64,000 bases of DNA, taken from NCBI GenBank assembly GCA_964510435.1, contig CAZEBU010000002.1, positions 81,080 through 145,079 of the forward strand, read 5' to 3'. Source of the stretch: an uncultured Candidatus Saccharibacteria bacterium (GTDB taxonomy: Bacteria > Patescibacteriota > WWE3 > UBA101185 > UBA10185). This document shows positions 1 to 14,798 of this stretch, piece by piece. The notes beneath the pieces were generated by a model, which was not told the DNA's origin, ran no database searches, and was given only the letters and a program-made list of their open reading frames with translations. Made by a program: the position numbers and the translations under genes. How positions within the stretch are numbered: position 1 is the stretch's first letter; the number at the start of each line of letters is the position of its first letter.

Positions 1-31
1 TTAGTTTGTTAGAATCGAGGCCGTAGAAATA

Positions 32-256
32 ATGAGTAAAACAACAAAGAAAGTAATATCTAAAGACGGAAAAGTCATCGAAACACTTCAGGCAGGAATG
101 TTCAAAGTAGAGTTAGAGGACGAGACTATTGCTTTAGCTACATTATCTGGTAAAATGCGAAAGTTCCGCATTAGGATATTGGCCGGAGACACAGTAAAGA
201 TCGAGTTTTCTCCCCATGATCTAACTAGAGGTAGGATTACCTATAGATACAGGTAA
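32..256 (+). CDS. infA: translation initiation factor IF-1
   Basis: 74 aa; S1-like IF-1 sequence ([21 protein letters not shown]...[21 protein letters not shown]). Conserved position upstream of rpmJ-rpsM. Confidence 0.9.
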
Positions 257-266
257 CCATTTTTAT

Positions 267-383
267 ATGAAGGTACGTGCATCTGTAAAAAAAATGTGCG
301 AAAAGTGCAAAATTATAAGAAGAAAGGGTGTCGTGAGGGTTATTTGCTCAAGAGATCCTAAACATAAACAAAGACAGGGTTGA
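267..383 (+). CDS. rpmJ: 50S ribosomal protein L36
   Basis: 38-aa ORF not in the track (below its size cutoff): [38 protein letters not shown], with the Cys/His zinc-ribbon pattern typical of L36. Lies between infA and rpsM as in most bacteria. Coordinates hand-counted. Confidence 0.85.
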
Positions 384-387
384 TTCT

Positions 388-774
388 ATGGCTAGAATTG
401 TAGGCATTAACGTTCCGGATGAAAAAAGAGTAGAAACCGCCCTAACCTATATACACGGCGTGGGGGCAACTATCTCGAAGAAAATACTTGAGAAAACAGG
501 TATTGGTCTTGATACTCGAGTAAAAGATCTCTCTGAAAGCGATCTGGCTAAGATCCAAAGTACTATTGTGGAATTACAGGTTACGGTTGAAGGTGAGCTA
601 AAAAGAATAACTAGACAAAACGTGCGCAGGTTAATGGATATCAAATCTTACAGAGGCCAAAGACACCGAGACGGGCTACCGGCAAGAGGACAGAGTACAA
701 AAAGGAATGCTAGAACCAAGAAAGGTAAAAGGAAGACTGTGGGAGGTCAAAAGAGAAAGTTAGTCAAGAAATAA
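388..774 (+). CDS. rpsM: 30S ribosomal protein S13
   Basis: 128 aa; MARIVGINVPDEKRVETALTYIHGVG... and a basic C-terminus typical of S13. Confidence 0.95.
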   Translation: MARIVGINVPDEKRVETALTYIHGVGATISKKILEKTGIGLDTRVKDLSESDLAKIQSTIVELQVTVEGELKRITRQNVRRLMDIKSYRGQRHRDGLPARGQSTKRNARTKKGKRKTVGGQKRKLVKK

Positions 775-780
775 CAATTT

Positions 781-1170
781 ATGGTAAAACCATCAAAGAG
801 AAAAAAATCCAAAGATAAAATAATTCCTTCTAGCGGGAAGGTACACATCAAGGCTGGTTTTAATAATACGCTAATTACCATTACAGACCCGGACGGCAAC
901 ACTCTTTTTACAGGCAGCGCCGGAAAAGCAGGTTTTAAAGGCTCTCGAAAATCAACCCCCTATGCAGCCACTAAAGCTACTGAAACTATTGCCTCCCAAG
1001 CTCGCAATGCAGGGCTAAAAGAGGTTTCCGTAACGGTAAAAGGTCCCGGATTGGGGAGAATACCTGCTATAAAAGCACTAAAAACTGGAGGCTTACACGT
1101 AATATCAATTTCGGACAGCACACCGGTTCCCCACAACGGTTGCAGACCTAAAAAGAAGAGAAGAGTTTAA
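781..1170 (+). CDS. rpsK: 30S ribosomal protein S11
   Basis: 129 aa; [24 protein letters not shown]...TPYAATKA motif of S11. Confidence 0.95.
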
Positions 1171-1172
1171 GA

Positions 1173-1784
1173 ATGGCTAGATATAAAGGACCTAAATGTA
1201 GATTGTGCAGAAGAGAAGGCGAAAAATTATATCTTAAAGGTATGAGATGCCACACTGATAAGTGCGCTATTAACAAAAGAAACTACGCGCCCGGTCAACA
1301 TGGAAACTCCCGAAGGAGAAGAAGAAGACCCTCTGACTACGGTAAACAGTTACGAGAAAAGCAGAAAGCAAAAAGAATTTACGGAGTTCTAGAAAGACAA
1401 TTTAAAAAATATGTTGATGATGCGTTGGAAACAAAAGGGGTATCAGGCGAAAAGCTTTTAAAACATTTGGAAACTAGATTTGATAACTTGGTCTTTCGAA
1501 GCGGTTTTGCTGTTTCTCGGGCTCAGGCCAGGCAGTTTATTAGATCAGGGTTTTTTGAGATAAACGGTAAAGTAGCCACCATACCTTCCATGCAACTGCT
1601 AATTAATGATATTATCAAGCCAGTAAATTTCGAAAAGATCCATTTAAGAGAAGGTTTTGTACTTCCTGAATGGCTTGAAGCCAACGTAAAAGAAAAGTAT
1701 GTAAAATTTGTTAGTCTGCCCACATTAGATAATTCACTAGAAAATATCAATGTGCAGTTAATTATTGAATATTATTCTAGATAA
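1173..1784 (+). CDS. rpsD: 30S ribosomal protein S4
   Basis: 203 aa; MARYKGPKCRLCRREGEKLYLKG N-terminus and an S4 RNA-binding domain. Confidence 0.95.
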   Translation: MARYKGPKCRLCRREGEKLYLKGMRCHTDKCAINKRNYAPGQHGNSRRRRRRPSDYGKQLREKQKAKRIYGVLERQFKKYVDDALETKGVSGEKLLKHLETRFDNLVFRSGFAVSRAQARQFIRSGFFEINGKVATIPSMQLLINDIIKPVNFEKIHLREGFVLPEWLEANVKEKYVKFVSLPTLDNSLENINVQLIIEYYSR

Positions 1785-1795
1785 GGAGAATTTTT

Positions 1796-2725
1796 ATGCA
1801 AATTACTTCTAAAGATTTAAAAATTAGAACCATCTCCGAAACAGATACACAAGGTGTATTTGAGTTCGACCCATTACCTAAAGGTTTTGGTCATACCCTA
1901 GGCAATACACTCAGAAGAGTTTTGCTTACTTCAATGGATGGCGCGGCTATTGCGCAAATTAAGGTTGAGGGAGCCAATCACCAGTTCTCAACTCTAGAGG
2001 GAGTAAAAGAGGATTTAGTAGAAATTATTCTAAACTTGAAAAAAGTTCGCCTAAAAAAATTTAGTGACAACCCGGAAGTGGCTATTTTAAAAGCAGAGGG
2101 ACCAGGAGAAGTAACTGCTGAGAAAATCGAATCTACGGCAGATATAGAGGTTATAAACAAAGACTTGCATATAGCTACCTTAGCTAACAAAAAAACTAGA
2201 CTAGAGATCGAACTAATAGTGGAGTCAGGGGTTGGTTACTCCCCTATGGAAGAAAGAAAAACTTCCAAAGTTGGTGTGATCGTCATCGATGCTTTATATT
2301 CTCCGGTAATTAGTGCCAATCTGGAAATTGAGGAGACAAGAGCCGGAGGTAGAACCGACCTTGACAAACTCGTTCTCACGGTGGAAACGGACGGCACGAT
2401 CAAACCTTCCACGGCTGTCTACAAATCCGCAGGTGTTCTTTCCAGGTTCTTTGAAGTATTAGAGAAGTGGGAGCAAGAACCGGAAAAGAAACCGGAAGAC
2501 ATAGAAATTCAGACCGGAGAAGTTTTGAACATTGAGGAGATCCTCGTTGATGAGCTCCCTTTACAAACTCGAACCGTTAACGCACTTAAAAAAGCAGGTG
2601 TTGATACCTTGGCAAAGTTGTCCAAAAAGTCCGAGGAGGAATTAGCTGACATTAAAAACCTTGGTGAGAAATCAATTTCCGAGATCAATAAATTGCTGGT
2701 CAAAGAAGGTCTGAAAGAAAAATGA
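1796..2725 (+). CDS. rpoA: DNA-directed RNA polymerase subunit alpha
   Basis: 309 aa; N-terminal dimerisation domain followed by a C-terminal alpha-CTD (ELPLQTRTVNALKKAGVDTL...). Follows S4 in the alpha operon. Confidence 0.95.
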   Translation: MQITSKDLKIRTISETDTQGVFEFDPLPKGFGHTLGNTLRRVLLTSMDGAAIAQIKVEGANHQFSTLEGVKEDLVEIILNLKKVRLKKFSDNPEVAILKAEGPGEVTAEKIESTADIEVINKDLHIATLANKKTRLEIELIVESGVGYSPMEERKTSKVGVIVIDALYSPVISANLEIEETRAGGRTDLDKLVLTVETDGTIKPSTAVYKSAGVLSRFFEVLEKWEQEPEKKPEDIEIQTGEVLNIEEILVDELPLQTRTVNALKKAGVDTLAKLSKKSEEELADIKNLGEKSISEINKLLVKEGLKEK

Positions 2726-3192
2726 GACACAGAGTCGCTAAAAAGACATTGCAAAGGGACAAGAGTCATAGAGTAGCATTACTAAAAAACCTTTCCACTA
2801 GCCTTATTATCAACGAGAAGGTTATAACAACAGTTTCCAAAGCAAAGTACTTAAGACCTCATATAGAAAAACTTATTACTAAGGCAAAAAAAGGAAATGG
2901 CTTTAACAACGTCAAGTATATGAAAAGCAAGCTTTTCAAAGAAGATGCTGTACGAAAAATCTTGAGTGATTTAGGCCCAAGATTTAGTAAAAGGCCTGGA
3001 GGCTACACCAGAATAATTAAGATCAAGAATAGAGAAGGTGATAATGCTCCCATGGCAAGAATTGAGTTTGTTGAGAAACCAAGAAAAAAGGAGAAAAAGG
3101 TTACTGAAAAGGTAGAAAAGAAATCTGGGAGAAAAATAACAGCTAAGAATGTTAAGAAAAATAAGGCGAAAAATAAGGAAGCTATAAAATGA
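2722..3192 (+). CDS. rplQ: 50S ribosomal protein L17 with Lys-rich C-terminal extension
   Basis: 156 aa; L17 core (RHRVAKKTLQRDKSHRVALLKNL...) plus a ~45-aa K/E-rich tail. Overlaps rpoA by 4 nt. Confidence 0.9.
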   Translation: MRHRVAKKTLQRDKSHRVALLKNLSTSLIINEKVITTVSKAKYLRPHIEKLITKAKKGNGFNNVKYMKSKLFKEDAVRKILSDLGPRFSKRPGGYTRIIKIKNREGDNAPMARIEFVEKPRKKEKKVTEKVEKKSGRKITAKNVKKNKAKNKEAIK

Positions 3193-3605
3193 AAAAGACC
3201 TATATCCCAAGCAAAAATGAGATCAAACAAAACTGGCATTTGATAGATGTAGATAACAAAATCCTCGGCAGAGTAGCTACGGAAATAGCCACATTACTTA
3301 CAGGAAAAAATAAACCAAGCTATACTCCTCATATCAACGTGGGAGATAAAGTGGTGGTGATCAATGCAGAGAAAATTGCAGTGACAGGAAGAAAATTAAC
3401 CCAAAAAAAATATCACAGATTTACAGGCTACCCCAGCGGAATTAAAACCGAGTCTCTGGAAAAACTACTGGAAAGGAAACCTACGGATGTAATTAAAAAA
3501 GCTGTGTGGGGCATGCTTCCAAACAATAAACTTAGAAAAGAGAGAATCATCAATTTACATATCTACAAAGGTGAGGAACATCCACACCAAGGGCAAATAA
3601 AATAA
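3189..3605 (+). CDS. rplM: 50S ribosomal protein L13
   Basis: 138 aa; MKKTYIPSKNEIKQNWHLIDVDNKILGRVATEIA... typical of L13. Overlaps rplQ by 4 nt. Confidence 0.9.
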   Translation: MKKTYIPSKNEIKQNWHLIDVDNKILGRVATEIATLLTGKNKPSYTPHINVGDKVVVINAEKIAVTGRKLTQKKYHRFTGYPSGIKTESLEKLLERKPTDVIKKAVWGMLPNNKLRKERIINLHIYKGEEHPHQGQIK

Positions 3606-3606
3606 T

Positions 3607-4023
3607 ATGGCAAAAGTAGACTCACAAGACAATTTGGTTATGACCTCAGGAAAAAGGAAAACAGCCATCGCCAGAGTATTCCTTTACCGAGAAAAAGGTG
3701 ATATTTTTGTAAATGACAAAAAGATTGATGATTACTTTACCAAAGAAATTGAACATATTGCTTGGAAAAAACCCTTTCACATCATAGGTGTTTCACATCC
3801 TGATACTCAGTTTAGAGGTACCATTAAAGTTTTTGGTTCAGGGAAATCAGCCCAACTTGATGCAATAACACACGGAATCTCCAGAGCGTTAGCCAAAATG
3901 GACGACGAATATAGGACAGCGCTAGGAAAAGCCGGTTTATTGACCAGAGATCCCCGAATGGTGGAACGAAAAAAGTATTATTTAAGAAAAGCTAGGAAAC
4001 GTCCACAGTATTCAAAGAGATAA
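3607..4023 (+). CDS. rpsI: 30S ribosomal protein S9
   Basis: 138 aa; the C-terminus ...RKARKRPQYSKR is diagnostic of S9. Confidence 0.9.
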   Translation: MAKVDSQDNLVMTSGKRKTAIARVFLYREKGDIFVNDKKIDDYFTKEIEHIAWKKPFHIIGVSHPDTQFRGTIKVFGSGKSAQLDAITHGISRALAKMDDEYRTALGKAGLLTRDPRMVERKKYYLRKARKRPQYSKR

Positions 4024-4299
4024 CCTATCCTTTAACAACTCTTTTAAATGTAGTAATTCACTTTCTATATTATTAATCTTTGATCTCAACTCGTACTTAT
4101 GGACATCATTCATATTAACAATAGGTGTATTGTAGATCGAGGAAATCTTATCCAAAACTTTTAAAGGAGGGCTTGTTCTCCCCCTCTCATAAGCAGAAAT
4201 AGTTTTCCCGGAAAGTCCTATTCTCTTAGCAAAACGATCCTGGGAAAGATTGTAACCATCTCTTATTTTCTTTATTTTTTTTCCAATATGTTCGGGCAT
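4012..4299 (-). CDS. XRE-family helix-turn-helix transcriptional regulator
   Basis: 95 aa; N-terminal HTH_3 pattern (IKKIRDGYNLSQDRFAKRIGLSGKTISAYERGRTSP). Divergent from the RadC-like gene. Confidence 0.7.
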   Translation of the reverse strand: MPEHIGKKIKKIRDGYNLSQDRFAKRIGLSGKTISAYERGRTSPPLKVLDKISSIYNTPIVNMNDVHKYELRSKINNIESELLHLKELLKDRLSL

Positions 4300-4328
4300 G
4301 GCAGTTATCTAAATTAATTAGAAACTAA

Positions 4329-4366
4329 CATATTGTAACAAGTATTGCAATAACCTATATTGCATA
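4329..4366. promoter_or_regulatory. divergent promoter/operator region with three TATTG(Y)AA direct repeats
   Basis: tattgtaa (about 4331), tattgcaa (about 4343) and tattgcat (about 4358), spaced 12-15 bp apart in the 68-bp gap between the XRE gene and the RadC-like gene. attgcaat is itself palindromic. Confidence 0.35.
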
Positions 4367-4367
4367 T

Positions 4368-5084
4368 ATGTACGGAAAACTGACCTTAAGGGATTTCGAT
4401 AAGGGAAATCAGCCTCGCGAAAGACTCGTAAATAAAGGCTCGGAAGCTCTTTCAGATGTTGAGCTGATGGCCATAATATTAAGATCCGGAGGAAAACACA
4501 AATCAGTTTTGGATATTTCCTACGAACTGCTAAAAAAACACGGCAACCTGGTTAATATATTCCAATGTGATCTGGAACAGCTGGCAAAGGAGAAGTACAT
4601 CGGGCGAGTGAAAGCCATAACTATAATAGCTGTCTTAGAAATATCTAAAAGAATACATTTGGCAAATAAGAAAGAGTATAGGTACATTCACAAACCCAAA
4701 GATGCCTTCCAAATAGTAAAGAAAGAACTTTTTGGTAAACGGCAAGAACATCTTTACTTAATTTCTCTTGATACTAGAAAGAGGTTTCTTTCTAAGGATC
4801 TGATCTGTATCGGATCTGTTAATGAAACGTTGATTCCTGTTAGGGAAATAATACAAAAAGCATTACTAAAGGACGCCGTCAATATTATCCTTGTGCATAA
4901 CCACCCCTCTAAGGATCCCAGTCCCAGTAAGGAGGATCTAGTAATTACCGAAAAAATTGCAAAAGCATGCCAACTAACCGGTTTGTCGCTTTTGGATCAC
5001 ATTATTACGGCTGACAATGAGTTTGCTAGTATAAAAAGTCTAGATTTATTTAATAGTGAAAAGTTAAGCAATGAAAGGAGGTGA
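4368..5084 (+). CDS. radC: RadC-like JAB-domain protein (UPF0758)
   Basis: 238 aa; N-terminal HhH-like region and a C-terminal JAB/MPN domain with HNHPSxxxxPSxxD (HNHPSKDPSPSKED). Confidence 0.85.
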   Translation: MYGKLTLRDFDKGNQPRERLVNKGSEALSDVELMAIILRSGGKHKSVLDISYELLKKHGNLVNIFQCDLEQLAKEKYIGRVKAITIIAVLEISKRIHLANKKEYRYIHKPKDAFQIVKKELFGKRQEHLYLISLDTRKRFLSKDLICIGSVNETLIPVREIIQKALLKDAVNIILVHNHPSKDPSPSKEDLVITEKIAKACQLTGLSLLDHIITADNEFASIKSLDLFNSEKLSNERR

Positions 5085-5088
5085 AGAA

Positions 5089-5220
5089 ATGAAAACAAAG
5101 TTAATTGTGATTTCCAGTTTGGCAATCTTAATACTAATTCTGGCCGGTGTGTCGTGGGCTGCATTCGGAGATAGAAGTAAGATCTTAGGGAGCAGTTTTT
5201 CTGTGGGGAGTGTTACCTAA
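5089..5220 (+). CDS. small predicted signal-peptide/membrane peptide (43 aa)
   Basis: ATG 4 nt after the radC stop, preceded by a ggaggtgaag RBS. Encodes MKTKLIVISSLAILILILAGVSWAAFGDRSKILGSSFSVGSVT. Hand-counted; overlaps the 3' end of the convergent ORF 5185-5598. Confidence 0.35.
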   Translation: MKTKLIVISSLAILILILAGVSWAAFGDRSKILGSSFSVGSVT

Positions 5221-5598
5221 TTCAATAGTAGATACCTTTATCTCCCCATCAATCAAAATATGGTCTTTATAGACAACAAGTTTCTTTACCCTAGACCTCA
5301 GTAGTTCTCTTTTTAGTAGACCAGATGCATTTCCCTCCCTTATTAGTTCATTGTACTTATCAATAAACTCCTCTCTGGCTTTTGTTAACGCGCTTTTCCT
5401 AACTTTGAAAATTTTAAATTCTCCCAATTCACCTTTTCTTTCTCCTAGCTGTGTGGATAGAGACTCACGTTCTTTACTAATTTCTTTCAGTTTAGTATCA
5501 AGGAGGTCTTCTCTAAATCTCTTTTTTACAAATTCCTCAACAGGGTAAGTACAATCAAATAGGAATAAGTGTGTCGAGATGAAGATTATAGGGTACAC
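5185..5598 (-). CDS. hypothetical coiled-coil protein
   Basis: 137-aa ORF, charged and helical (KLKEISKERESLSTQLGERKGELGEF...). I recognise no family. Confidence 0.4.
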   Translation of the reverse strand: MYPIIFISTHLFLFDCTYPVEEFVKKRFREDLLDTKLKEISKERESLSTQLGERKGELGEFKIFKVRKSALTKAREEFIDKYNELIREGNASGLLKRELLRSRVKKLVVYKDHILIDGEIKVSTIELGNTPHRKTAP

Positions 5599-5724
5599 GA
5601 AACTAGAAAATATCTCAAAAAAACAGCTTTAAACGTCGTTTAATAAATGATATACGACATGCTCACAAATAGTTCTTTTATAGATAAGCTGATTTTAGTG
5701 CTAGTGAGGTTATAATCGTGTTTT

Positions 5725-6441
5725 TTATGATACTGGCTTAATAACATCAGCATATGGTGCAACAAATTGAGTACCTTCATCGGAGACAATTGGTGTTTCT
5801 TCTTTAATCGTTTTCCTGTTTTCTTCAGCAAGTTCCTGCTTAGAAATATCATAGTAAATCTCTCCTCCACTTTTAAGGTAATCACTTTTAACTTTTTTAT
5901 CACTTATATCGATAATGATTTTAACCTTTGATAGAAGATCAAGAGATAAAATGTCTGCCTTTTTACACTTCTTTTGTAGATTACCAATGTGCACGCTGTA
6001 GACATCCAGTAGGCTTTCGTTTACTTCTTTATCTTTAAGCGAGGTCATTATTGCATTTACTTCTTCTTCAAGATATTGGGTATCAGAGTTTATAGTCTCT
6101 ATTAAAGAATACAAATTTGAGTAATCATTAATGATATCAATACTCAGAATTTTAAGGCTTAAACCTGAGCTTAAAAATAATTTATAAAACCTGAGCATAA
6201 GTCTAATTACATTATCTTCATGATCGAAGGAAGCTTCTAAAGTTCTTAGGTTTCTGGACATATTTACTCGTAGTGGTATTAGCTCGTGTTCAATTTGGAC
6301 AATTGTGTTCCTATGATCAATATACTTATCTCTACGTAATTCTCTTAAGCGTCTTTTAGATTCAAAGTGATCTGACCATATACCAGCAAATAAACCACCT
6401 GAAAAAGCTGATAATAATATTAATATGGCATCTTCCTTCAT
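5725..6441 (-). CDS. hypothetical membrane-anchored protein
   Basis: 238 aa; one N-terminal TM helix (AILILLSAFSGGLFAGIW) then a helical soluble domain. I recognise no family. Confidence 0.5.
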   Translation of the reverse strand: MKEDAILILLSAFSGGLFAGIWSDHFESKRRLRELRRDKYIDHRNTIVQIEHELIPLRVNMSRNLRTLEASFDHEDNVIRLMLRFYKLFLSSGLSLKILSIDIINDYSNLYSLIETINSDTQYLEEEVNAIMTSLKDKEVNESLLDVYSVHIGNLQKKCKKADILSLDLLSKVKIIIDISDKKVKSDYLKSGGEIYYDISKQELAEENRKTIKEETPIVSDEGTQFVAPYADVIKPVS

Positions 6442-6527
6442 ATATGTATATTATATGTCAGTTTAGTTGTAATATATCCTTACAGGCACCACGCTAGTTC
6501 ATTAATGCAACAATAGTGATTGTGGTA

Positions 6528-6556
6528 TTTACAAAATTATAAATGGTTGCTAAAAT
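6528..6556 (+). promoter_or_regulatory. sigma70-like promoter (-35 TTTACA, 17-nt spacer, extended -10 TGcTAAAAT)
   Basis: tttaca at 6528-6533 and tgctaaaat at 6548-6556. The predicted transcription start is near 6563, at the base of a structured region. Confidence 0.45.
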
Positions 6557-6562
6557 GTAAGC

Positions 6563-6655
6563 GTGCTAGTCGGGCGAAAGCCCTTCTTCAGCTAAGACAT
6601 GTCTAAGCCGAGAGACTAGCACACTAAGAGCGCCTTTTCTGGCGCTTCTTTTTAT
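6563..6655 (+). ncRNA. candidate small RNA with a three-way-junction fold, ending in an intrinsic terminator
   Basis: A 9-bp outer stem gtgctagtc/gactagcac (6563-6571 / 6614-6622) encloses hairpins gggcGAAAgccc and gctaagacatgtctaagc. A GC stem agagcgcc..ggcgct (6627-6647) plus a cUUUUUaUU tract follows. Sits directly downstream of the promoter above and is antisense to the last ~11 codons of ORF 6624-7061. Confidence 0.4.
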
Positions 6656-7061
6656 TAGATTTCATTTTATTCTTATTCATAACACTTCCAAGTTTGTAAA
6701 TATTGTTATAGATTCCTATTTTTTCAACGACTACTTTTATCTTCATTCTTGGGGATACTGGATGAATAAGCTCATAACTTATAAGGTCTTTCATCTTACC
6801 CTTATATTTTTTCTTTCTCCTTCTTATTTCTGAAATACTCTCACAATTTTCAATGACCTCTGGTGCGTATTGTAAACACCTAAGTCTCATATATTGATCG
6901 CTAATATTTCTAGGCATTCTATTTGAGTCGTAAATGAGATGATTAAATCCTTCTGATGTGAAATGAACGTCAGATTTTAGAACAGGACAATAAACCTTTT
7001 TAATTTTTTTGTAGTCTTTACGCTTTTCTTCAATTAATTTCTGTATATCTTTCGTGATCAA
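6624..7061 (-). CDS. hypothetical highly basic protein
   Basis: 145 aa; a cysteine-containing N-terminal half and an extremely K/R-rich C-terminus (KNKMKSNKKKRQKRRS). No family recognised. Confidence 0.45.
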   Translation of the reverse strand: MITKDIQKLIEEKRKDYKKIKKVYCPVLKSDVHFTSEGFNHLIYDSNRMPRNISDQYMRLRCLQYAPEVIENCESISEIRRRKKKYKGKMKDLISYELIHPVSPRMKIKVVVEKIGIYNNIYKLGSVMNKNKMKSNKKKRQKRRS

Positions 7062-7313
7062 TTATCTGTCTTTCTTATAGTACTTTTATAAAACAATAAG
7101 CTGGTCTACTACCAATCCCTTGCTTTTTTAACGGTAACTCTCTTTAGAAATTCCTGCAAAAGTCGCTATTTTGCGCCCATAAAGTAGCACTCCAAGGTCT
7201 TAGGTGTCAAGTGGTGATTTTCTAGGTACGCGCAACAATTAAACATAACATCCAGGAGTCCCGTTAAATTTATTGTAAGCAAGCTTTTATAACCATCGAT
7301 AGTGGTATATACC

Positions 7314-7814
7314 TCACTCCGAGTTTATATTTTGCCAAAATATCTTTGGGTGGGGATATCCACCATAAATGGCGGCACTCTTATAAGCCTTTTTTACATT
7401 CTTTAAACCCTGCGTAGTCAAAACTTTGGTTAAACGCCCCCTGTACAGTTCTCTCGAAAGCTTTGGTTTAAACACAGGCATGCAAATCCAGTCCAGTATT
7501 TCCTCAATCAATGTATGCTCTTCATCCCTAAGATTTCCTGCTTTAATAGAGTAGCCTTTATTAGTCTTTTCAGTTTTATCACTATATATAGTCTTGTTAG
7601 AGTTCATCCTGTGGTACGTTCTATGGGGAATCTTTGATTCATTCTGTGGTGCAAATCCAATCACAGAGTCCACTTCATTTATCGTTACAACAGTTCCCTT
7701 TCTTGAAGGGCTCTGCTCTATTAACTGGTACACGTTTTCTAGTCTTTTAAGTGCCTTGCCTACAGTTCTGTGGTCACATCCAAACTCTCTGGCTATTTCT
7801 CTCCAACCACACAC
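7314..7814 (-). CDS. N-terminal HTH-domain protein (possible mobile-element or phage remnant)
   Basis: 166 aa with a GTG start. Residues 5-25 (REIAREFGCDHRTVGKALKRL) form a classic HTH like those of transposase OrfA or terminase small subunits. An in-frame stop lies 2 codons upstream, so the N-terminus is intact. Confidence 0.45.
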   Translation of the reverse strand: MCGWREIAREFGCDHRTVGKALKRLENVYQLIEQSPSRKGTVVTINEVDSVIGFAPQNESKIPHRTYHRMNSNKTIYSDKTEKTNKGYSIKAGNLRDEEHTLIEEILDWICMPVFKPKLSRELYRGRLTKVLTTQGLKNVKKAYKSAAIYGGYPHPKIFWQNINSE

Positions 7815-8000
7815 GCACTACCCACGTTTTAGGGTGTATACCTTACCCGCACTTTTAACAGCACCAGCTGAAATTCTTGTTCTAAGAAGTAAAAGGGTAT
7901 AAATATGCTTAGCTAGATAGTCTTCCCCAAATACACTATTTAAATTCGAGGGAATTGGGATTTTATAACTTGATTTAATTATGTCAATATTATTCATCTA

Positions 8001-8189
8001 TCAACTCTTCTCGGTCAAAATAATGTACCCCTTTCCCAAACATGCGTGGCACACTCTTCTATCAAAGGAAACAGTCCCAAACCCATTACAGACCAGGCAT
8101 TTATGCGGTTTTAAATCATTTCTATTTTTCATCGTTTTATCCATCTTTTTTATTTCGCTTTCAACAAAAAGGCTGACATATACACCCAA
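8001..8189 (-). CDS. small zinc-ribbon protein (CxxC...CxxC)
   Basis: 62 aa; KCLVCNGFGTVSFDRRVCHACLGKG carries two CxxC pairs. Could be a real small protein or spurious. Confidence 0.3.
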   Translation of the reverse strand: MGVYVSLFVESEIKKMDKTMKNRNDLKPHKCLVCNGFGTVSFDRRVCHACLGKGYIILTEKS

Positions 8190-8494
8190 TTCCTTGGATA
8201 GATATACCGGCTTTTCAGCAGGAACTCTGCTGTCACCTTTTTTACTGCAGCATTATAGACATGTTTTTTAAGTTTATGCAAATGCCGTATTTTGCTTTAA
8301 CCACAGTAAATCATAAAATATATTATTTTAAAATATTTCAAGATTAATAATTTTTTAATTTTTGGGAAGTACGATGTTGGAATGAAAAATACAAGGAAAC
8401 TCCTTAAGTTAATTGATTTACTAGCTCACCTAAACAAGAAAACAGGTAAAAGATACTATGTTTTAGTAACAATAGATGGTTCCTGGTAAAGAAA

Positions 8495-9064
8495 CTACAC
8501 GCCAATTCCTAGTATGTAAACGGGAATATCTATATCTGAAACTCCTCTGGCATTTAAATCCCATACAAACTGTTCAAAATACGACACGCCAGTAGACATC
8601 TTTGCCGCCAACTCTTTCACAGGAACTATCTCAACTCCGGCATCAATATGCCCTAAGTTACTAAAAATGGTCATTTTAGCGCATACATTGTAAACCATAA
8701 AAGAATACTTACCGAATTGCACCTCAACACCTAGCTTATTTTTTATAAAGTCCATTTCCCTGTATGCATTATTAATTTTTATTGGAGAATACCCGTCTAT
8801 AAAGTATTCTGTCGGGTAATCGCATTTCTCTCTTATTCCATATTGCCACCCTTTAGATTTAAAGATTCTTTTAAACTCGTTATTCAATTTTCGTGGAGAG
8901 TACAGTGTCTTACCTGGCATAGTTTTTTCTTTGCTCTCCTTGCTAAAACTCTTTAAAGCATCGTTTAAACCGATTGCTTCTTCAATCTCTTTTAACTCTT
9001 GACTATAATTATTTTTTACATAATCCTCGCCATTAGCGAAGGAATACCTTCCAAATATTTTCAT
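8495..9064 (-). CDS. type II restriction endonuclease, BamHI/BglII/BstYI family
   Basis: 189 aa. IDGY...GVEVQFGKYSF...LGHIDAGVEIVPVKELAAK follows the BamHI pattern (D94 ... GMEFETGNIS ... LKHGEIDLAIILMPIKQLAYY). A Gln occupies the position of BamHI Glu113, as in BglII. Sits 2 nt downstream of a methyltransferase gene. Confidence 0.6.
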   Translation of the reverse strand: MKIFGRYSFANGEDYVKNNYSQELKEIEEAIGLNDALKSFSKESKEKTMPGKTLYSPRKLNNEFKRIFKSKGWQYGIREKCDYPTEYFIDGYSPIKINNAYREMDFIKNKLGVEVQFGKYSFMVYNVCAKMTIFSNLGHIDAGVEIVPVKELAAKMSTGVSYFEQFVWDLNARGVSDIDIPVYILGIGV

Positions 9065-9066
9065 CT

Positions 9067-10005
9067 TTATTTAATCCAACTTATTGGTACCTTCGATACC
9101 TTTTCTTTTCCTGTTGGTTTGTATACTGGTTTACCTAGAGGCCTTATTCTTAATTTTCCAGCTCTTAATTTAGCAATTCTCTTCTCGGCTAAGCTAACAT
9201 ATTTTGCTTCCATTTCCATACCTAATGCATCCCTATTATGCATAATAGCACCAATAACCGTGGAACCCACACCCATAAACGGGTCGTAAACCAAATCTCC
9301 TTCGTTTGTTAATGCTAGAACACATCTCTGAACCAATTCCACGGGAAATTGACAGGGATGACCAGTCTTTTCAGGATGATTGCTTTTTACATTAGGTATT
9401 TCCCAAATTTCCTTCTCCCAATCCCCACAAATTATCTCCCAAAAATCTGAAGGATTCTTTCCTCTTGGATTACCAGAAGGTTTACCTAAATTTTTACCTT
9501 TATAGGAAAGCTTTCCTGGGTACTTTGCAGGAACTCTTACATTATCAAGGTTGAACACATACTCTTTATTCTTATCATTTTTTGTGAACCATAATATTGT
9601 CTCGTACCTACCCGAAAACCTTTTACTAGCGTGGAGTCCGTGACCAAAATGCCAGATTATTCTATTCCTTAGATGAAATCCAACGTCTTTAAAAATATTA
9701 TAAAAATAAATATCTAAGGGAAAAACTTCGCCTTTTTTGATATAGTTTCCAACCTCCCATGCTAAACTGCCGCCGTCTCTTATTTTGGAGTAAATTGCTC
9801 GAGCAAAATCTTTATAAGGATGAAGGTACTTTTCAAAATCTTTTCTTTTCTCATATTCCTTTCCAATATTGTATGGTGGAGAGGTTATAAGTAATTGTAT
9901 GCTATCATCTTCCAATTTTTTTACATGTTTGAATGTATCAACTTGGAGAATATCGTATTTACCAAATTTTTTTTGCATGTTTAATCCCAACTTTGACTGT
10001 GCCAT
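9067..10005 (-). CDS. DNA methyltransferase, beta-class (SPPY motif IV before FxGxG motif I), probable N4-cytosine or N6-adenine type II MTase
   Basis: 312 aa; LLITSPPYNIGKEY (motif IV) followed later by DPFMGVGST (motif I). This order matches the N4C/N6A beta group that includes M.BamHI and M.PvuII. Confidence 0.85.
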   Translation of the reverse strand: MAQSKLGLNMQKKFGKYDILQVDTFKHVKKLEDDSIQLLITSPPYNIGKEYEKRKDFEKYLHPYKDFARAIYSKIRDGGSLAWEVGNYIKKGEVFPLDIYFYNIFKDVGFHLRNRIIWHFGHGLHASKRFSGRYETILWFTKNDKNKEYVFNLDNVRVPAKYPGKLSYKGKNLGKPSGNPRGKNPSDFWEIICGDWEKEIWEIPNVKSNHPEKTGHPCQFPVELVQRCVLALTNEGDLVYDPFMGVGSTVIGAIMHNRDALGMEMEAKYVSLAEKRIAKLRAGKLRIRPLGKPVYKPTGKEKVSKVPISWIK

Positions 10006-10151
10006 AAACCTATGTTATCACACACACAAAACTATCAATTATATACCGGGTCATTACTAAACAATGAGGTTGTGAATTTGTGATTTATATTTTCAAAAAA
10101 TAAGGAATACCAATACATTCATTATAGTTACTTTCTTGGTAGGAAGTTTCC

Positions 10152-11432
10152 CTAAAACGCATCCAATTCAGCAAAGGACGGATTATTGACAATTTCCTCT
10201 ACAGCATCGCTATCAAATTTTTCGTTCTGCCAAAAACCCCGAAGTTCCAAATCTTTTGTTGCAAGGGGGTATATCCATGCAGTAAACACTTTATCTGCTT
10301 TATCAATAAATATTATCCTTACCTCCACACCTCCAGCAAGAGAACCACTAAGTGGAAACGTGACAAATTTGCTTCTATAATAACTATTGTCAAAATTCTT
10401 CAAACCAGTAATTTCGGTTTCTAAACCAACTATAGCTAGATGTGACACGCCGTCATTACCCCCGTCAAGATAATTATCTAAGGCTTCTCTCAAGAAAGTC
10501 ACATACTCCAAGTCACTAATATTCTTTCTCCATTCTAAGTATTCTTCGTAATCGCCTATAGCTGGTTGTGGAAAGGTATCACCAGCATTATAAATATCTT
10601 CAATCTCTATTTTTGGTTGCTGTGCAGTTAACCCATTAGCTTCGCTAGGCTCAGTGTGCTCTTTAGCCCCGTTAGAATCATAAAACTTAAGGTCAGTCGG
10701 AAGATTGAATTTATTAGGCTCATAGGTAGTAATTTCTAGCAATATTGATATGCCTGTGACTAAAGTGACAAGTACTAAAGATACTTCTAAAAATCTTAGA
10801 ATTTTTCTTCTTCCCCAGAAATTATTAAAAAACTTGAATGCTAATATAAACAAAGTAAACGATGCCAGTAATAACGGTAATATTTCTTCAGGAATACTTG
10901 GTTTGGGTGAGTACCCTATAAAAGCACCTATAATTGCGTATAAAATCAGTAAAAAGAGAAGTAAAACTAACCAAAATAATACCTTGACTATTTCGTCGGT
11001 TTTCCTATAGGAGAAAGCCAGACGCGTATATATTTTCTGTATTAATTCCTTAGTATATCTAAAACCATACAACTTAATTAATAATATTGTTCCTATTAAA
11101 AATGTTATCATTCTCCAAATATTATCTGAGAACCAAGCGCTATCTGAGAATTTAAACTCTGCAATCGGATTTATAACCACAATTAACAATATATAAACTC
11201 TTACCCAAGTCATGTTTTTACTCTGATATTCTTTATATGCAAGGTAGATTAGTGATAAGAAAATAATTATCTTGAAGTTATAGAATGTATTACTATTTGA
11301 AAGGTAACTAGGCTGTGTGGCCAACAACCAAATAAATAAAAATAACAAAACTAGTGGTAAACTTTTCAGTATAACCGAGTCAGACTTTATCATTGATAGT
11401 ATTTTCTTATTGTAAGACTCTTTTAGTTCCAT
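10152..11432 (-). CDS. hypothetical polytopic membrane protein with C-terminal soluble domain
   Basis: 426 aa; about 7 hydrophobic helices in the first ~240 aa, then an acidic soluble domain. No family recognised. Confidence 0.55.
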   Translation of the reverse strand: MELKESYNKKILSMIKSDSVILKSLPLVLLFLFIWLLATQPSYLSNSNTFYNFKIIIFLSLIYLAYKEYQSKNMTWVRVYILLIVVINPIAEFKFSDSAWFSDNIWRMITFLIGTILLIKLYGFRYTKELIQKIYTRLAFSYRKTDEIVKVLFWLVLLLFLLILYAIIGAFIGYSPKPSIPEEILPLLLASFTLFILAFKFFNNFWGRRKILRFLEVSLVLVTLVTGISILLEITTYEPNKFNLPTDLKFYDSNGAKEHTEPSEANGLTAQQPKIEIEDIYNAGDTFPQPAIGDYEEYLEWRKNISDLEYVTFLREALDNYLDGGNDGVSHLAIVGLETEITGLKNFDNSYYRSKFVTFPLSGSLAGGVEVRIIFIDKADKVFTAWIYPLATKDLELRGFWQNEKFDSDAVEEIVNNPSFAELDAF

Positions 11433-11685
11433 GGTATCCCAAACTGATTATTTTACTTATCTCTCTAATTAATCCTTATCTTTTTTACCTACTGCTCTTC
11501 GGAGTTCCTTTTTAGCAAGTGGAAAACTTATTATTCTTGATATTTTGTACTTTACTTCGAAATATTAACCACTTTTTTCAAGAAAAAATACAAATCCTTC
11601 CCACAAAATCATTTTACATCATAAACTATATGTTTACTTCCACACTGTAAGGTATAGAAATAAACTCAATTAGGCTGCTCTTTCC

Positions 11686-12153
11686 GTGGGGAGCGCAGAT
11701 ATCAAGCTTTTGGAAGATCTCGCAGCAGGTACCAATCCGGAAAACCTCGTAGACGAGCTGCCCGGACCGTCCTTTAGTGGGCTCCATCCCAATTGGACAG
11801 AAGATTATCCGCTAAAAATCTATAATAACGCTACGGGTCATATTCAACTAACCTCCAACGCCGACTATGAAACTATCAATGATCCGGATGATTTAAGACA
11901 AATAATCTATGTTGAACCCATTAATTGGAGTGATACAGATAACAATGGCTTGGTCGAAGAAGGAGAACTCGGTTCTTCTTTTGGCAGGAAGACCATCATC
12001 AAGTGGAAAACAGAAGGTTTTGACCTAAGCTCTATGAGCTCGGGTTCGGTGAAGGGAATGGTTTTAAGATTCTCCACGGATAATGTGTCGGACACAAAAC
12101 AGGGAAAGAGCGCTATTTTCGATTTCGTATTCGACTCTCTAGGACTGGAATAA
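11686..12153 (+). CDS. hypothetical protein
   Basis: 155 aa with a GTG start; an in-frame stop lies 5 codons upstream. Acidic, no recognisable motif. Confidence 0.4.
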   Translation: MGSADIKLLEDLAAGTNPENLVDELPGPSFSGLHPNWTEDYPLKIYNNATGHIQLTSNADYETINDPDDLRQIIYVEPINWSDTDNNGLVEEGELGSSFGRKTIIKWKTEGFDLSSMSSGSVKGMVLRFSTDNVSDTKQGKSAIFDFVFDSLGLE

Positions 12154-12224: not shown

Positions 12225-14798
12225 GTGCTGATACTGCCCAAATTGATCTATAACTTTATCTATTGGTGGATCTATGAGATACCAAGAAACACTTTTAATG
12301 TTCTTAAAAAGATCACCTATTTTGTAAACAACGAATTTTCTTTTACCTTAAACATCAAACTTATTTTCACACCTCTCTACGGCGACAACACAATCATAGG
12401 CAGGGTAATTGGTTTTATCTTAAGAATAATTTTTATAGTTGTCGGATTTTTCTTTGTAGGATTTCTAGCCTTAGCTTCTGTGATCTTACCAACCTCTTGG
12501 TATCTCCTACCACTTATCATGTTCTATTATCTTGGCTTTTGGTCCCTACCTATCGTCGCAGCTATGTTTTTATACCATATCTACATCACCATTGATCAAC
12601 CTGATAAAAGAGTGGAAAATGTGGATGAAGAAAACAAGTTATTTTCTTTTAGGCCTCAAGTAAAGGAAATAATTAGGAAAATAAAGAAAAACCCCTCACA
12701 GGCTATAGCAAGTTTTATGAAATCTCCCGAAATTAACTCCTTGTTGGAAAAAGCAGAACTTACCGATATCAATTTCCCTGCAAAAATCGGCCAAGTAGAG
12801 AAACTCTCCACTAAAAAAGTAGAGGTTTCATCCTTTGTCTACGGCAAAAAGAACAGATCCAGATATGTAGAAAAAGAGCATTTACTTCTCGGTTTGCTTT
12901 CCTCCATTCCCGGTATAGATAATATCCTTTCGGAATTTGGCATTGAACTTAAAACTATTGAAGAAACCGCTTTGTGGATTGTCGGGAAAAGAGAGGATGA
13001 ATCCAAGCTCTACTTCTGGCAGGAAGATTACGAAACATCAACCATATCAGGTTTCGGTCATGGCCTCATCGGCAGAGTTACGCCCCATCTTGATGCAATT
13101 TCAGTTGATTATACTAAAATGGCTAAGAAAGGCCGGCTTAAAAACATTATTGGCAGGGAAGACGAAATTAAGAAAATTGCTCAATTGCTTGGCGGTTCTA
13201 GAGAAAATGTCTTACTGATCGGAGAACCCGGATGTGGAAAAACCTCTATCGTTATGGGCATGGCGCACAGAATTATGCATGGGACAAAATACAAAACTTT
13301 GCAAAACAAAAGGATCGTTAACTTACAAACCGGAAGCCTGATTGCGGGGTCAAAAACAACCGGTGAAATTGCCGAAAAACTAAAAGACGCACTTGATGAT
13401 GCTATCGGTTCTGGAGATATTATCCTCTTTATTGACGAGATTCATGCACTAGTTGGTTCTGTTAACGAAGGAGAGGGTTACTCCACAATATTCTCTATCT
13501 TAGAACCTCATTTATCCTCAAATCAGCTGCAGTTTATAGGGGCTACAAGCATAGAAAACTATCGTAAGTATATTGAATCCATAGGTTCTTTTTCAAGACT
13601 ATTTGAAATTGTAGAAATCCCTGAATCCAACCAAGAAGATACCTTGGAAATACTTAAATACATAGCTGATCTGCAAGAAGTTACTTTTGGTGTCAGAATA
13701 ACCATGCCTGCACTCTTAACAATTTTAAAACTCTCAGGAAAACTAATTCATAACCGAGTCCTTCCCGATAAAGCCATAGATGTGCTCATCAGATCCGTAG
13801 CCTTAGTCAATGATTCAACTAGGGTAGTCACTTCTAAAGTTGTGGAACAAGAAATATCCGAAATGACGCATATTCCCGTTACGGCAGTTACAGAAGAGGA
13901 GTCAGAAAAGCTTCTTAACATCTATAGAGAGATGAAAAAGTATGTGGTAGGACAAGATCACGCTCTAGAAAAAATCTCCTCAGCTTTAAAAAGAGCCAGA
14001 GTGGGAATAAGAGATGAGAAAAAGCCTATCGCCAGCTTTTTGTTTGTAGGTACAACAGGCGTAGGAAAAACAGAAACAGCAAAAACTCTCGGTAAGGTTT
14101 ATTTTGGAGATGAAACTAATATGATCCGCTTGGATATGAGTGAATATCAACACGTTGACAGCATCGAAAAATTAATTGGTTCCTCAGACGGAAAAACAAG
14201 AGGTCTGCTGACAGAGGCAGTTCGGTCAAAACCTTTTGCCGTGATACTTTTAGACGAAATTGAAAAGGCGCACCATAAAATTTTGCTTACCTTCCTGCAG
14301 GTATTGGACGACGCCCGCTTAACTGACTCCACAGGAAGAACAGTTGACTTCACCAACACAATTATTATTGCCACCAGCAACGTTGGGACAAAGCAAATTC
14401 AAAGCATTACTGAAAAAAGTGGGTCATACGAGGAAATCGAGATCGTCGCCTTAAAAGCGGTAAGAGAAAACTTCGCACCGGAGTTTCTTAATAGATTTAC
14501 GGATATTATTGTCTATAAACCCCTAGATCTAGAACACGTTCGAAAAATTGCCCGCATTTTACTATATGACGTGAAAGGGCGTACTCAAGAGCAAAACGTC
14601 AAGATTTCCTTCTCAGAGGAATTGATCGATGAATTAGTTAAAAGAGGCTACAATCCACAGTGGGGTGCCCGACCTATGGCCAGGGTAATAGAAGATTCCG
14701 TGGAAACTCATATAGCCGAGAAGCTTCTTACCAAGGAGATAAAGAGGGGGGACGTCGTCAAACTTGGCATAGAAGTGTTTGATGAGCGTCCCCATTAA
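12225..14798 (+). CDS. ClpA/ClpB-like double-AAA+ ATPase with N-terminal transmembrane segment
   Basis: 857 aa. NBD1 Walker A is GEPGCGKTS with Walker B ILFIDEIH; NBD2 Walker A is GTTGVGKTE with Walker B ILLDEIE and a sensor region. There is a single Clp_N-like repeat (EHLLLGLLSS). The first ~130 aa hold 3-4 hydrophobic helices. No long M-domain and no IGF/IGL ClpP-docking loop. Confidence 0.85.
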   Translation: MLILPKLIYNFIYWWIYEIPRNTFNVLKKITYFVNNEFSFTLNIKLIFTPLYGDNTIIGRVIGFILRIIFIVVGFFFVGFLALASVILPTSWYLLPLIMFYYLGFWSLPIVAAMFLYHIYITIDQPDKRVENVDEENKLFSFRPQVKEIIRKIKKNPSQAIASFMKSPEINSLLEKAELTDINFPAKIGQVEKLSTKKVEVSSFVYGKKNRSRYVEKEHLLLGLLSSIPGIDNILSEFGIELKTIEETALWIVGKREDESKLYFWQEDYETSTISGFGHGLIGRVTPHLDAISVDYTKMAKKGRLKNIIGREDEIKKIAQLLGGSRENVLLIGEPGCGKTSIVMGMAHRIMHGTKYKTLQNKRIVNLQTGSLIAGSKTTGEIAEKLKDALDDAIGSGDIILFIDEIHALVGSVNEGEGYSTIFSILEPHLSSNQLQFIGATSIENYRKYIESIGSFSRLFEIVEIPESNQEDTLEILKYIADLQEVTFGVRITMPALLTILKLSGKLIHNRVLPDKAIDVLIRSVALVNDSTRVVTSKVVEQEISEMTHIPVTAVTEEESEKLLNIYREMKKYVVGQDHALEKISSALKRARVGIRDEKKPIASFLFVGTTGVGKTETAKTLGKVYFGDETNMIRLDMSEYQHVDSIEKLIGSSDGKTRGLLTEAVRSKPFAVILLDEIEKAHHKILLTFLQVLDDARLTDSTGRTVDFTNTIIIATSNVGTKQIQSITEKSGSYEEIEIVALKAVRENFAPEFLNRFTDIIVYKPLDLEHVRKIARILLYDVKGRTQEQNVKISFSEELIDELVKRGYNPQWGARPMARVIEDSVETHIAEKLLTKEIKRGDVVKLGIEVFDERPH

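Follow-up and report, generated by a model that had tools for sequence, protein, structure and literature searches.

What sequence does a two-gene restriction-modification (R-M) system of an uncultured patescibacterium recognise, and how did the system come to lie in that genome? The question is raised by positions 8495-10005 of a 64,000-nucleotide stretch of contig CAZEBU010000002.1 (assembly GCA_964510435.1), the whole of which is called the window here and whose numbering is used throughout. The locus consists of a methyltransferase gene (M) and a restriction endonuclease gene (R). The pair is likely a type IIP R-M cassette of the BglII/BstYI family that is directed at RGATCY and is carried on an acquired island in a WWE3-like Patescibacteria genome. 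In this reading, M and then R would be transcribed from the minus strand as one operon, and M would methylate the host DNA, placing N4-methylcytosine within RGATCY (RGATm4CY). R would hydrolyze DNA in a Mg2+-dependent reaction through residues D105, E114 and Q116, cutting unmethylated R^GATCY in incoming DNA to leave GATC 5ʹ overhangs, as BstYI does. The cassette itself would have arrived on a horizontally acquired island of ~6.6 kb.

The two genes

9067-10005, minus strand: M, beta-class DNA amino-methyltransferase gene (longest open reading frame [ORF] 312 amino acids; Pfam N6_N4_Mtase)
8495-9064, minus strand: R, BglII/BstYI-family type IIP restriction endonuclease gene (189 amino acids; Pfam PF09195)

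Both ORFs are real and intact, and their matches are far beyond chance. An earlier reading of the window, made from the letters alone (the sequence-only reading), had proposed an R-M pair at this place; two minus-strand ORFs are found exactly there, together with all of the motifs that it quoted. The R protein is identical in three other assemblies. The M stop codon TAA (9069-9067) is followed after a gap of 2 nucleotides by the R start codon, an ATG at 9064, and M and R are therefore almost certainly co-transcribed and translationally coupled.

The longest ORF probably overstates the length of M. A second ATG at 9978, 27 nucleotides inside the reported end, gives a protein of 303 amino acids, which is the length assigned to M by gene callers on identical metagenome contigs. 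Moreover, the alignment of M with its homologues has no conservation ahead of Met10, the first nine codons (9978-10005) being without counterpart. On these two grounds, the true start of M is probably the ATG at 9978. A (GT)4-like run, GTGTGTGTG, is located just upstream of the first M ATG.

A scan for sigma-70 promoters gave no minus-strand match upstream of M, a scan limited to the E. coli-type consensus and uninformative for an organism of the candidate phyla radiation (CPR). The BglII system has a controller (C) protein gene. None accompanies the present pair, unlike the BglII and BamHI systems: no helix-turn-helix (HTH) ORF of at least 50 amino acids is found in the 146 bp upstream of M or the 305 bp downstream of R. 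The sequence-only reading, which saw no evident C-protein gene, was thus right for both flanking intergenic stretches.

Family and fold of the endonuclease

By sequence comparison and predicted structure, the family assignment of R can be sharpened to BstYI-like. R matches the Pfam family Endonuc-BglII (PF09195) at 5e-21 (75.5 bits, with a cut-off of 26) over residues 13-187, spanning profile positions 3-162 of 163, and PHROG 28079 ("restriction endonuclease II") at 7e-30; no NCBIfam model scored above its cut-off in a search with R. When the single sequence is compared with solved relatives by phmmer, the E-values are 2e-31 for BstYI, 0.01 for BglII and 0.68 for BamHI. A family profile built from 40 homologues matches BstYI at 1e-46 over the full length (1-188 to 1-202) and BglII at 3e-7, and gives no match to BamHI at E≤1.

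The same alignment served to build an AlphaFold2 model of R, with a mean predicted local distance difference test (pLDDT) of 89.8 and a predicted template modeling score (pTM) of 0.87. In a Foldseek search of the model against the PDB, BstYI, BamHI, BglII and OkrAI are the sole matches at E≤1e-3. The BstYI-DNA complex 1vrr is matched at 5e-17 (template modeling [TM] score 0.81, 35% identity), BamHI and BglII at about 1e-8 (TMq 0.55-0.67 for the BamHI chains and 0.64-0.72 for BglII), and OkrAI at about 1e-6. A BamHI/BglII-type fold had been foreseen by the sequence-only reading, with structure prediction named as the check; that prediction was run, and the modeled enzyme appears to fold as foreseen. 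R would most likely act as a homodimer of the PD-(D/E)XK type.

The nearest relative of R by both sequence and fold is BstYI of Geobacillus stearothermophilus Y406 (R^GATCY; 1sdo, 1vrr, 2p0j), with which it aligns along its full length. The two enzymes have the D-X8-E-X-Q motif in common, the segments KESKEKT and QFGKYSF are identical, and MS(S/T)G is kept. BstYI likewise has an amino-methyltransferase as its partner, and the site avoidance in hosts of the R family, described below, fits RGATCY. They differ in length (203 amino acids for BstYI, 189 for R) and in host, that of BstYI being a thermophilic Firmicute and the present one a mesophilic CPR bacterium.

BglII (AGATCT; 1dfm, 1d2i, 1es8) belongs to the same Pfam family, PF09195, and resembles R in fold (TM 0.72) and in its residues D84, E93 and Q95, the counterparts of D105, E114 and Q116. 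However, it is far more distant, with 22% identity and the weaker phmmer and profile matches given above, and the avoidance in R-family hosts spans GGATCC and AGATCC, beyond AGATCT. BamHI and OkrAI (GGATCC; 1bhm, 3odh) have the alpha/beta PD-(D/E)XK fold class in common with R (Foldseek matches from about 1e-8 to 1e-6) but are 13-19% identical to it. In addition, BamHI has Glu113 where R has Gln, and its catalytic residues are spaced D94-X16-E111-X-E113 rather than D-X8-E-X-Q.

Active site and residues for outer-base recognition

8717-8752, minus strand: catalytic segment D105-X8-E114-X-Q116 (EMDFIKNKLGVEVQ), from the alignment with BstYI and BglII
8708-8710, minus strand: K119, aligned with BstYI K133, in the heptapeptide QFGKYSF that is identical in BstYI
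8591-8596, minus strand: S157-T158, aligned with BstYI S171-S172 (MSTGVSYFE in R, MSSGISYYE in BstYI)

R residues D105, E114 and Q116 align with positions 119, 128 and 130 of BstYI and with Asp84, Glu93 and Gln95 of BglII, the catalytic residues of that enzyme. Across 121 family sequences, D105, E114, Q116, K119 and S157 never vary. The sequence-only reading had equated GVEVQFG (R residues 112-118) with GMEFETG of BamHI and had pointed to a Gln, as in BglII, at the position of BamHI Glu113. The alignment agrees with both statements, Q116 being the residue that aligns with BglII Q95. The same reading had also placed the equivalent of BamHI Asp94 in IDGY (R residues 89-92), and this did not hold: the catalytic Asp is D105, in EMDF. 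The Asp of IDGY, D90, occupies a position that varies within the family (N in 36, D in 24, E in 22, G in 11 and K in 9 of the 121 sequences) and falls in a variable segment about 14 residues shorter than its counterpart in BstYI.

Residues K133 and S172 of BstYI reportedly tune recognition of the outer base pair. At the corresponding positions of the R family, K119 is fixed, position 157 is S in 121 of 121 sequences, and position 158 holds either T (91 sequences) or S (30), so that a hydroxyl is kept.

Site avoidance and the recognition sequence

R and BstYI are 35-41% identical, and restriction enzymes no closer than this may recognise different sites. Because of this, homology alone does not fix the site, and independent evidence was sought in the avoidance of candidate sites by genomes that carry the family. 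For this, 85 loci bearing an R-family member were pooled (599 kb), and expected counts were computed for each locus with an order-3 Markov model. A maximal-order model absorbs the depletion of pentamers and understates avoidance; order-2 and order-3 models were used instead.

In the pooled loci, the ratio of observed to expected sites (O/E) is 0.53 for RGATCY. Both palindromic forms of the site are rare. Among 2,076 hexamer classes (reverse complements merged, palindromic and non-palindromic together), GGATCC is the third most depleted (O/E 0.36; 56 observed, 154 expected) and AGATCT the fourth (O/E 0.42; 46 observed, 111 expected). The asymmetric form AGATCC/GGATCT follows with an O/E of 0.68 (170 observed, 250 expected), 15th of the 2,016 non-palindromic classes. 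No depletion is seen for YGATCR (1.01) or for GATC hexamers with mixed flanks (1.20). Locus by locus, RGATCY is below expectation in 55 of the 60 loci in which at least 2 sites are expected (P 1e-11), compared with 25 of 62 for YGATCR. The control, 23 Patescibacteria loci without the system, has an RGATCY O/E of 0.94. Since the two palindromes and the asymmetric variant are depleted and other GATC cores are not, the signature is the one that an RGATCY specificity, rather than a BamHI-only or BglII-only one, would leave. R most likely targets RGATCY, as judged from the avoidance in its relatives' hosts and its kinship with BstYI. The sequence-only reading had left the choice between GGATCC, AGATCT and RGATCY for a cutter with a GATC core; the core seems right, and RGATCY is the member of the three that is favored.

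Several observations weigh against this assignment, in addition to the modest identity with BstYI. The window itself is not depleted, with 90 RGATCY sites observed and 89-94 expected (O/E 0.99), nor are low-GC CPR loci, and the signal comes from the hosts of homologues, not from the present genome. Generic palindromes such as GGGCCC and GTCGAC are depleted even more strongly in the pooled set, which is mostly of high GC, and the cassette-free control loci are not matched to that set in GC content. Within the protein, the family is without about 14 residues of the segment 78-112 of BstYI, and S172 of BstYI is replaced by Thr in R.

Some of these points would also suit an enzyme of the same family and mechanism with a narrower or different GATC-core site, whether AGATCT only, GGATCC only or another NGATCN. 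Such a specificity is unlikely. The level of identity with BstYI, the shortened arm segment and the Thr rather than Ser at position 158 leave room for it, and the two palindromes are more depleted in the pooled loci than the asymmetric variant. However, an enzyme specific for only one palindrome would not cause both AGATCT and GGATCC to be depleted, and AGATCC/GGATCT lies in the lowest 1% of non-palindromic hexamers, with YGATCR and mixed-flank GATC unaffected. Moreover, BstYI is nearer to R than BglII or BamHI by 15-40 orders of magnitude, and conservation extends to the counterparts of BstYI K133 and S171/S172. RGATCY therefore stays the favored, if indirectly supported, site.

The sequence-only reading had counted about 10 copies of GGATCC in the window, close to chance, and had concluded that depletion does not indicate the specificity. 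The count is 12, with 8-11 expected. The conclusion stands for the host window, which shows no depletion, and fails for the island and the wider family, both of which are informative. Cassette hosts of the CPR type with a GC content below 0.42, among them a Daviesbacteria locus (L004), another locus (L033) and the window, show no depletion (for example, RGATCY makes up 17 of 47, 15 of 45 and 90 of 283 GATC sites), while most hosts of higher GC are strongly depleted (for example, 0 of 33, 1 of 48 and 2 of 84). That CPR hosts lack the avoidance seen in non-CPR hosts may mean that CPR genomes have carried the cassette only recently or transiently. Two further features of the composition of the window are that GGGCCC (the ApaI/PspOMI site) is absent from its 64,000 nucleotides (3-6 expected) and that GATC is somewhat over-represented (283 copies, 223-249 expected).

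The methyltransferase and the methylated base

9871-9882, minus strand: motif IV, SPPY, the catalytic motif (M residues 42-45)
9259-9285, minus strand: motif I, DPFMGVGST, the S-adenosylmethionine (AdoMet)-binding FxGxG motif (M residues 241-249)

M matches Pfam N6_N4_Mtase (PF01555) at 1e-49 over residues 36-275, well above the gathering cut-off. Beta-group methyltransferases have motif IV (DPPY or SPPY) before motif I (PMC2890505). This is the order in M, where motif IV (from residue 42) precedes motif I (from residue 241) in the arrangement IV...target recognition domain (TRD)...I; the sequence-only reading, which had noted SPPY ahead of DPFMGVGST, was accurate on this point. By motif order and by SPPY, M is comparable to M.BamHI, M.BglII and M.PvuII, a likeness of motifs. 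Its matches among solved structures include M.RsrI (1e-25), CcrM, M.MboIIA and M.PvuII (9e-12), and the cytosine-N4 methyltransferases 8s9n and 8s9m are matched at about 1e-19.

BstYI, BamHI and BglII all cleave Dam-methylated DNA; adenine methylation of GATC would not protect against them. SPPY is common to most bacterial N4-cytosine methyltransferases, and N6-adenine enzymes carry DPPY (PMC8885841; PMC10406627). M.BamHI and M.BglII are N4-methylcytosine (N4mC) methylases, and M.BstYI is possibly one (PMC2890505). Together, the SPPY motif, the N4mC relatives and the Dam-insensitive cutting by the three endonucleases point to RGATm4CY as the product: by motif IV and by analogy, M most likely makes N4-methylcytosine within RGATCY. 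Against this, and in a departure from the N4-cytosine enzymes, the nearest solved matches of M are N6-adenine enzymes of the beta class (M.RsrI, CcrM, M.MboIIA), which is why the assignment rests on motif IV and analogy. NCBIfam returns only adenine-methyltransferase equivalogs for M, all sub-threshold, and these were left out of the decision between N6-methyladenine and N4-methylcytosine.

A conserved two-gene cassette

The family of R is large and widespread, with 5,083 protein clusters at E≤1e-3. The best 120 clusters all contain proteins of about 189 amino acids that are 61-68% identical to R. They come from CPR phyla, Anaerolineae, Planctomycetota, Bacteroidota, Deltaproteobacteria and Woesearchaeota, and one of them carries the NCBI name "BglII/BstYI family type II restriction endonuclease".

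The association of R with M is constant. In the 85 loci surveyed, a homologue of M (45-66% identical) is located directly upstream of the R-family gene on the same strand in 80, and none of the 68 loci with enough upstream DNA departs from this arrangement. SPPY serves as motif IV in all 71 of 71 partner methyltransferases, and no controller gene stands alongside the cassette in the homologous loci examined. M and R thus form a strictly co-inherited two-gene cassette in the order M to R. A homologous cassette in the Daviesbacteria locus (JACPEW010000011.1, L004, positions 1-12061) lies inside a cluster of defense and mobile-element genes, its neighbors being an IS1595 transposase, an SNF2/PLD helicase, a ParB-N-fused methyltransferase and an Eco57I/TaqI_C type IIG-like enzyme.

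The inserted island

5085-11685 (nine ORFs, all on the minus strand): island of ~6.6 kb carrying the R-M pair, with approximate boundaries
10152-11432, minus strand: DUF6804 multi-pass membrane protein gene (426 amino acids; match at 2e-7), directly upstream of M
8001-8189, minus strand: zinc-ribbon ORF (CxxCxGxG...CxxCxGxG; 62 amino acids), just downstream of R
7314-7997, minus strand: split DnaD-like gene, made up of the same-frame ORFs 7818-7997 and 7314-7814 with a TAG at 7820-7818 between them

The island is flanked on one side by radC (4368-5084; Pfam RadC) and on the other by a conserved hypothetical gene (11686-12153), which is followed by a ClpB-like gene (12225-14798) whose product is 48-59% identical to proteins from metagenome-assembled genomes of candidate division WWE3 and other Patescibacteria. 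At the matching site of about 15 related WWE3/Patescibacteria genomes, the radC homologue adjoins the homologue of 11686-12153, and the ClpB-like gene comes next. The minus-strand ORFs between 5185 and 11432 have no homologue at these ~15 syntenic loci, and the R-M pair therefore sits on an insertion of ~6.6 kb.

The island also differs from its surroundings in composition. Its GC content is 0.34, compared with about 0.39 around it. RGATCY is absent from positions 5181-11714, where about 5.7 sites are expected from the trinucleotide composition of that interval (P about 0.005). GATC as a whole is missing over 4.66 kb (7057-11715), whereas the second-longest GATC-free run of the window measures 1.2 kb and the host averages 4.8 GATC per kb. 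Such a gap suggests that GATC-containing sites were selected against while the island evolved. No convincing flanking direct or inverted repeats, tRNA genes or integrase are found for the island; the one integrase-like match, that of ORF 5185-5598 to phrog_95 (E 0.0065), is too weak to rely on.

The product of 7314-7814 has weak matches to DnaD-like helicase loaders, replication initiators and HTH proteins (PHROG E about 2e-3), and 7314-7997 is probably a pseudogenized replication gene of a mobile element. The picture suggested is that of a mobile element, now decayed, with which the R-M cassette came in fairly recently, and an arrival of this kind would also account for the persistence of RGATCY in the host chromosome.

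A bolder account, which we regard as quite unlikely, is that the short-armed clade of 189-amino-acid enzymes (more than 5,000 clusters in Bacteria and Archaea) has altered discrimination of the outer base pair or an altered cleavage position, and that in the CPR it travels on integrase-less, GATC-purged mini-islands as a selfish addiction module. If true, such modules would explain why RGATCY avoidance is missing from CPR chromosomes and present in other hosts. A cassette that does not function in host defense, either because R is silent or inactive beside an orphan or epigenetic M or because the pair is a decaying passenger of a dead element, is very unlikely: the in-frame TAG in the DnaD-like gene, the lack of an integrase match, the absence of RGATCY avoidance by the host and the negative promoter scan (itself confined to the E. 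coli-type consensus) would suit it, but both ORFs are full length, all family-invariant residues are kept (those of the catalytic triad and of motifs IV and I among them), the 2-nucleotide coupling of M and R is preserved, and the identical R protein recurs in other assemblies. An RGATCY-directed cassette that would be active in its present host is thus the reading that we retain.

Significance

The system is an ordinary one. Its clade is already annotated in databases, and R has every family feature that sequence and structure prediction can test; the mildly notable points are limited to the GATC-free island and to the difference in site avoidance that separates CPR from non-CPR hosts. Understanding of such R-M systems is unchanged by the present pair, and its significance is modest: a confidently assigned R-M system, probably specific for RGATCY, is added to a WWE3-like Patescibacteria genome. 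Because these hosts are uncultured, their defense and methylation are accessible by inference alone. The predicted N4-methylcytosine motif in RGATCY could aid binning, or the linking of mobile elements to their host, in long-read metagenomes. Family-wide avoidance also provides a sequence-only route to specificity for an abundant, uncharacterized BstYI-like clade.

Other genes of the island

Besides the R-M pair, the island carries the DUF6804 membrane protein, the CxxC zinc-ribbon protein, the DnaD-like/HTH gene, an LPD3-like protein and two unknown ORFs; none of this cargo has a match of convincing significance. The zinc-ribbon product of 8001-8189 resembles anti-TRAP (RtpA), the DnaJ central domain and phage Q-like antiterminators at sub-threshold scores only, and it is not an HTH C-protein. 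The split in the DnaD-like gene is also present in contig VAPC010876800.1 (L002). On another metagenome contig (L001), the DUF6804 gene likewise adjoins M, and it thus moves together with the R-M pair in this element.

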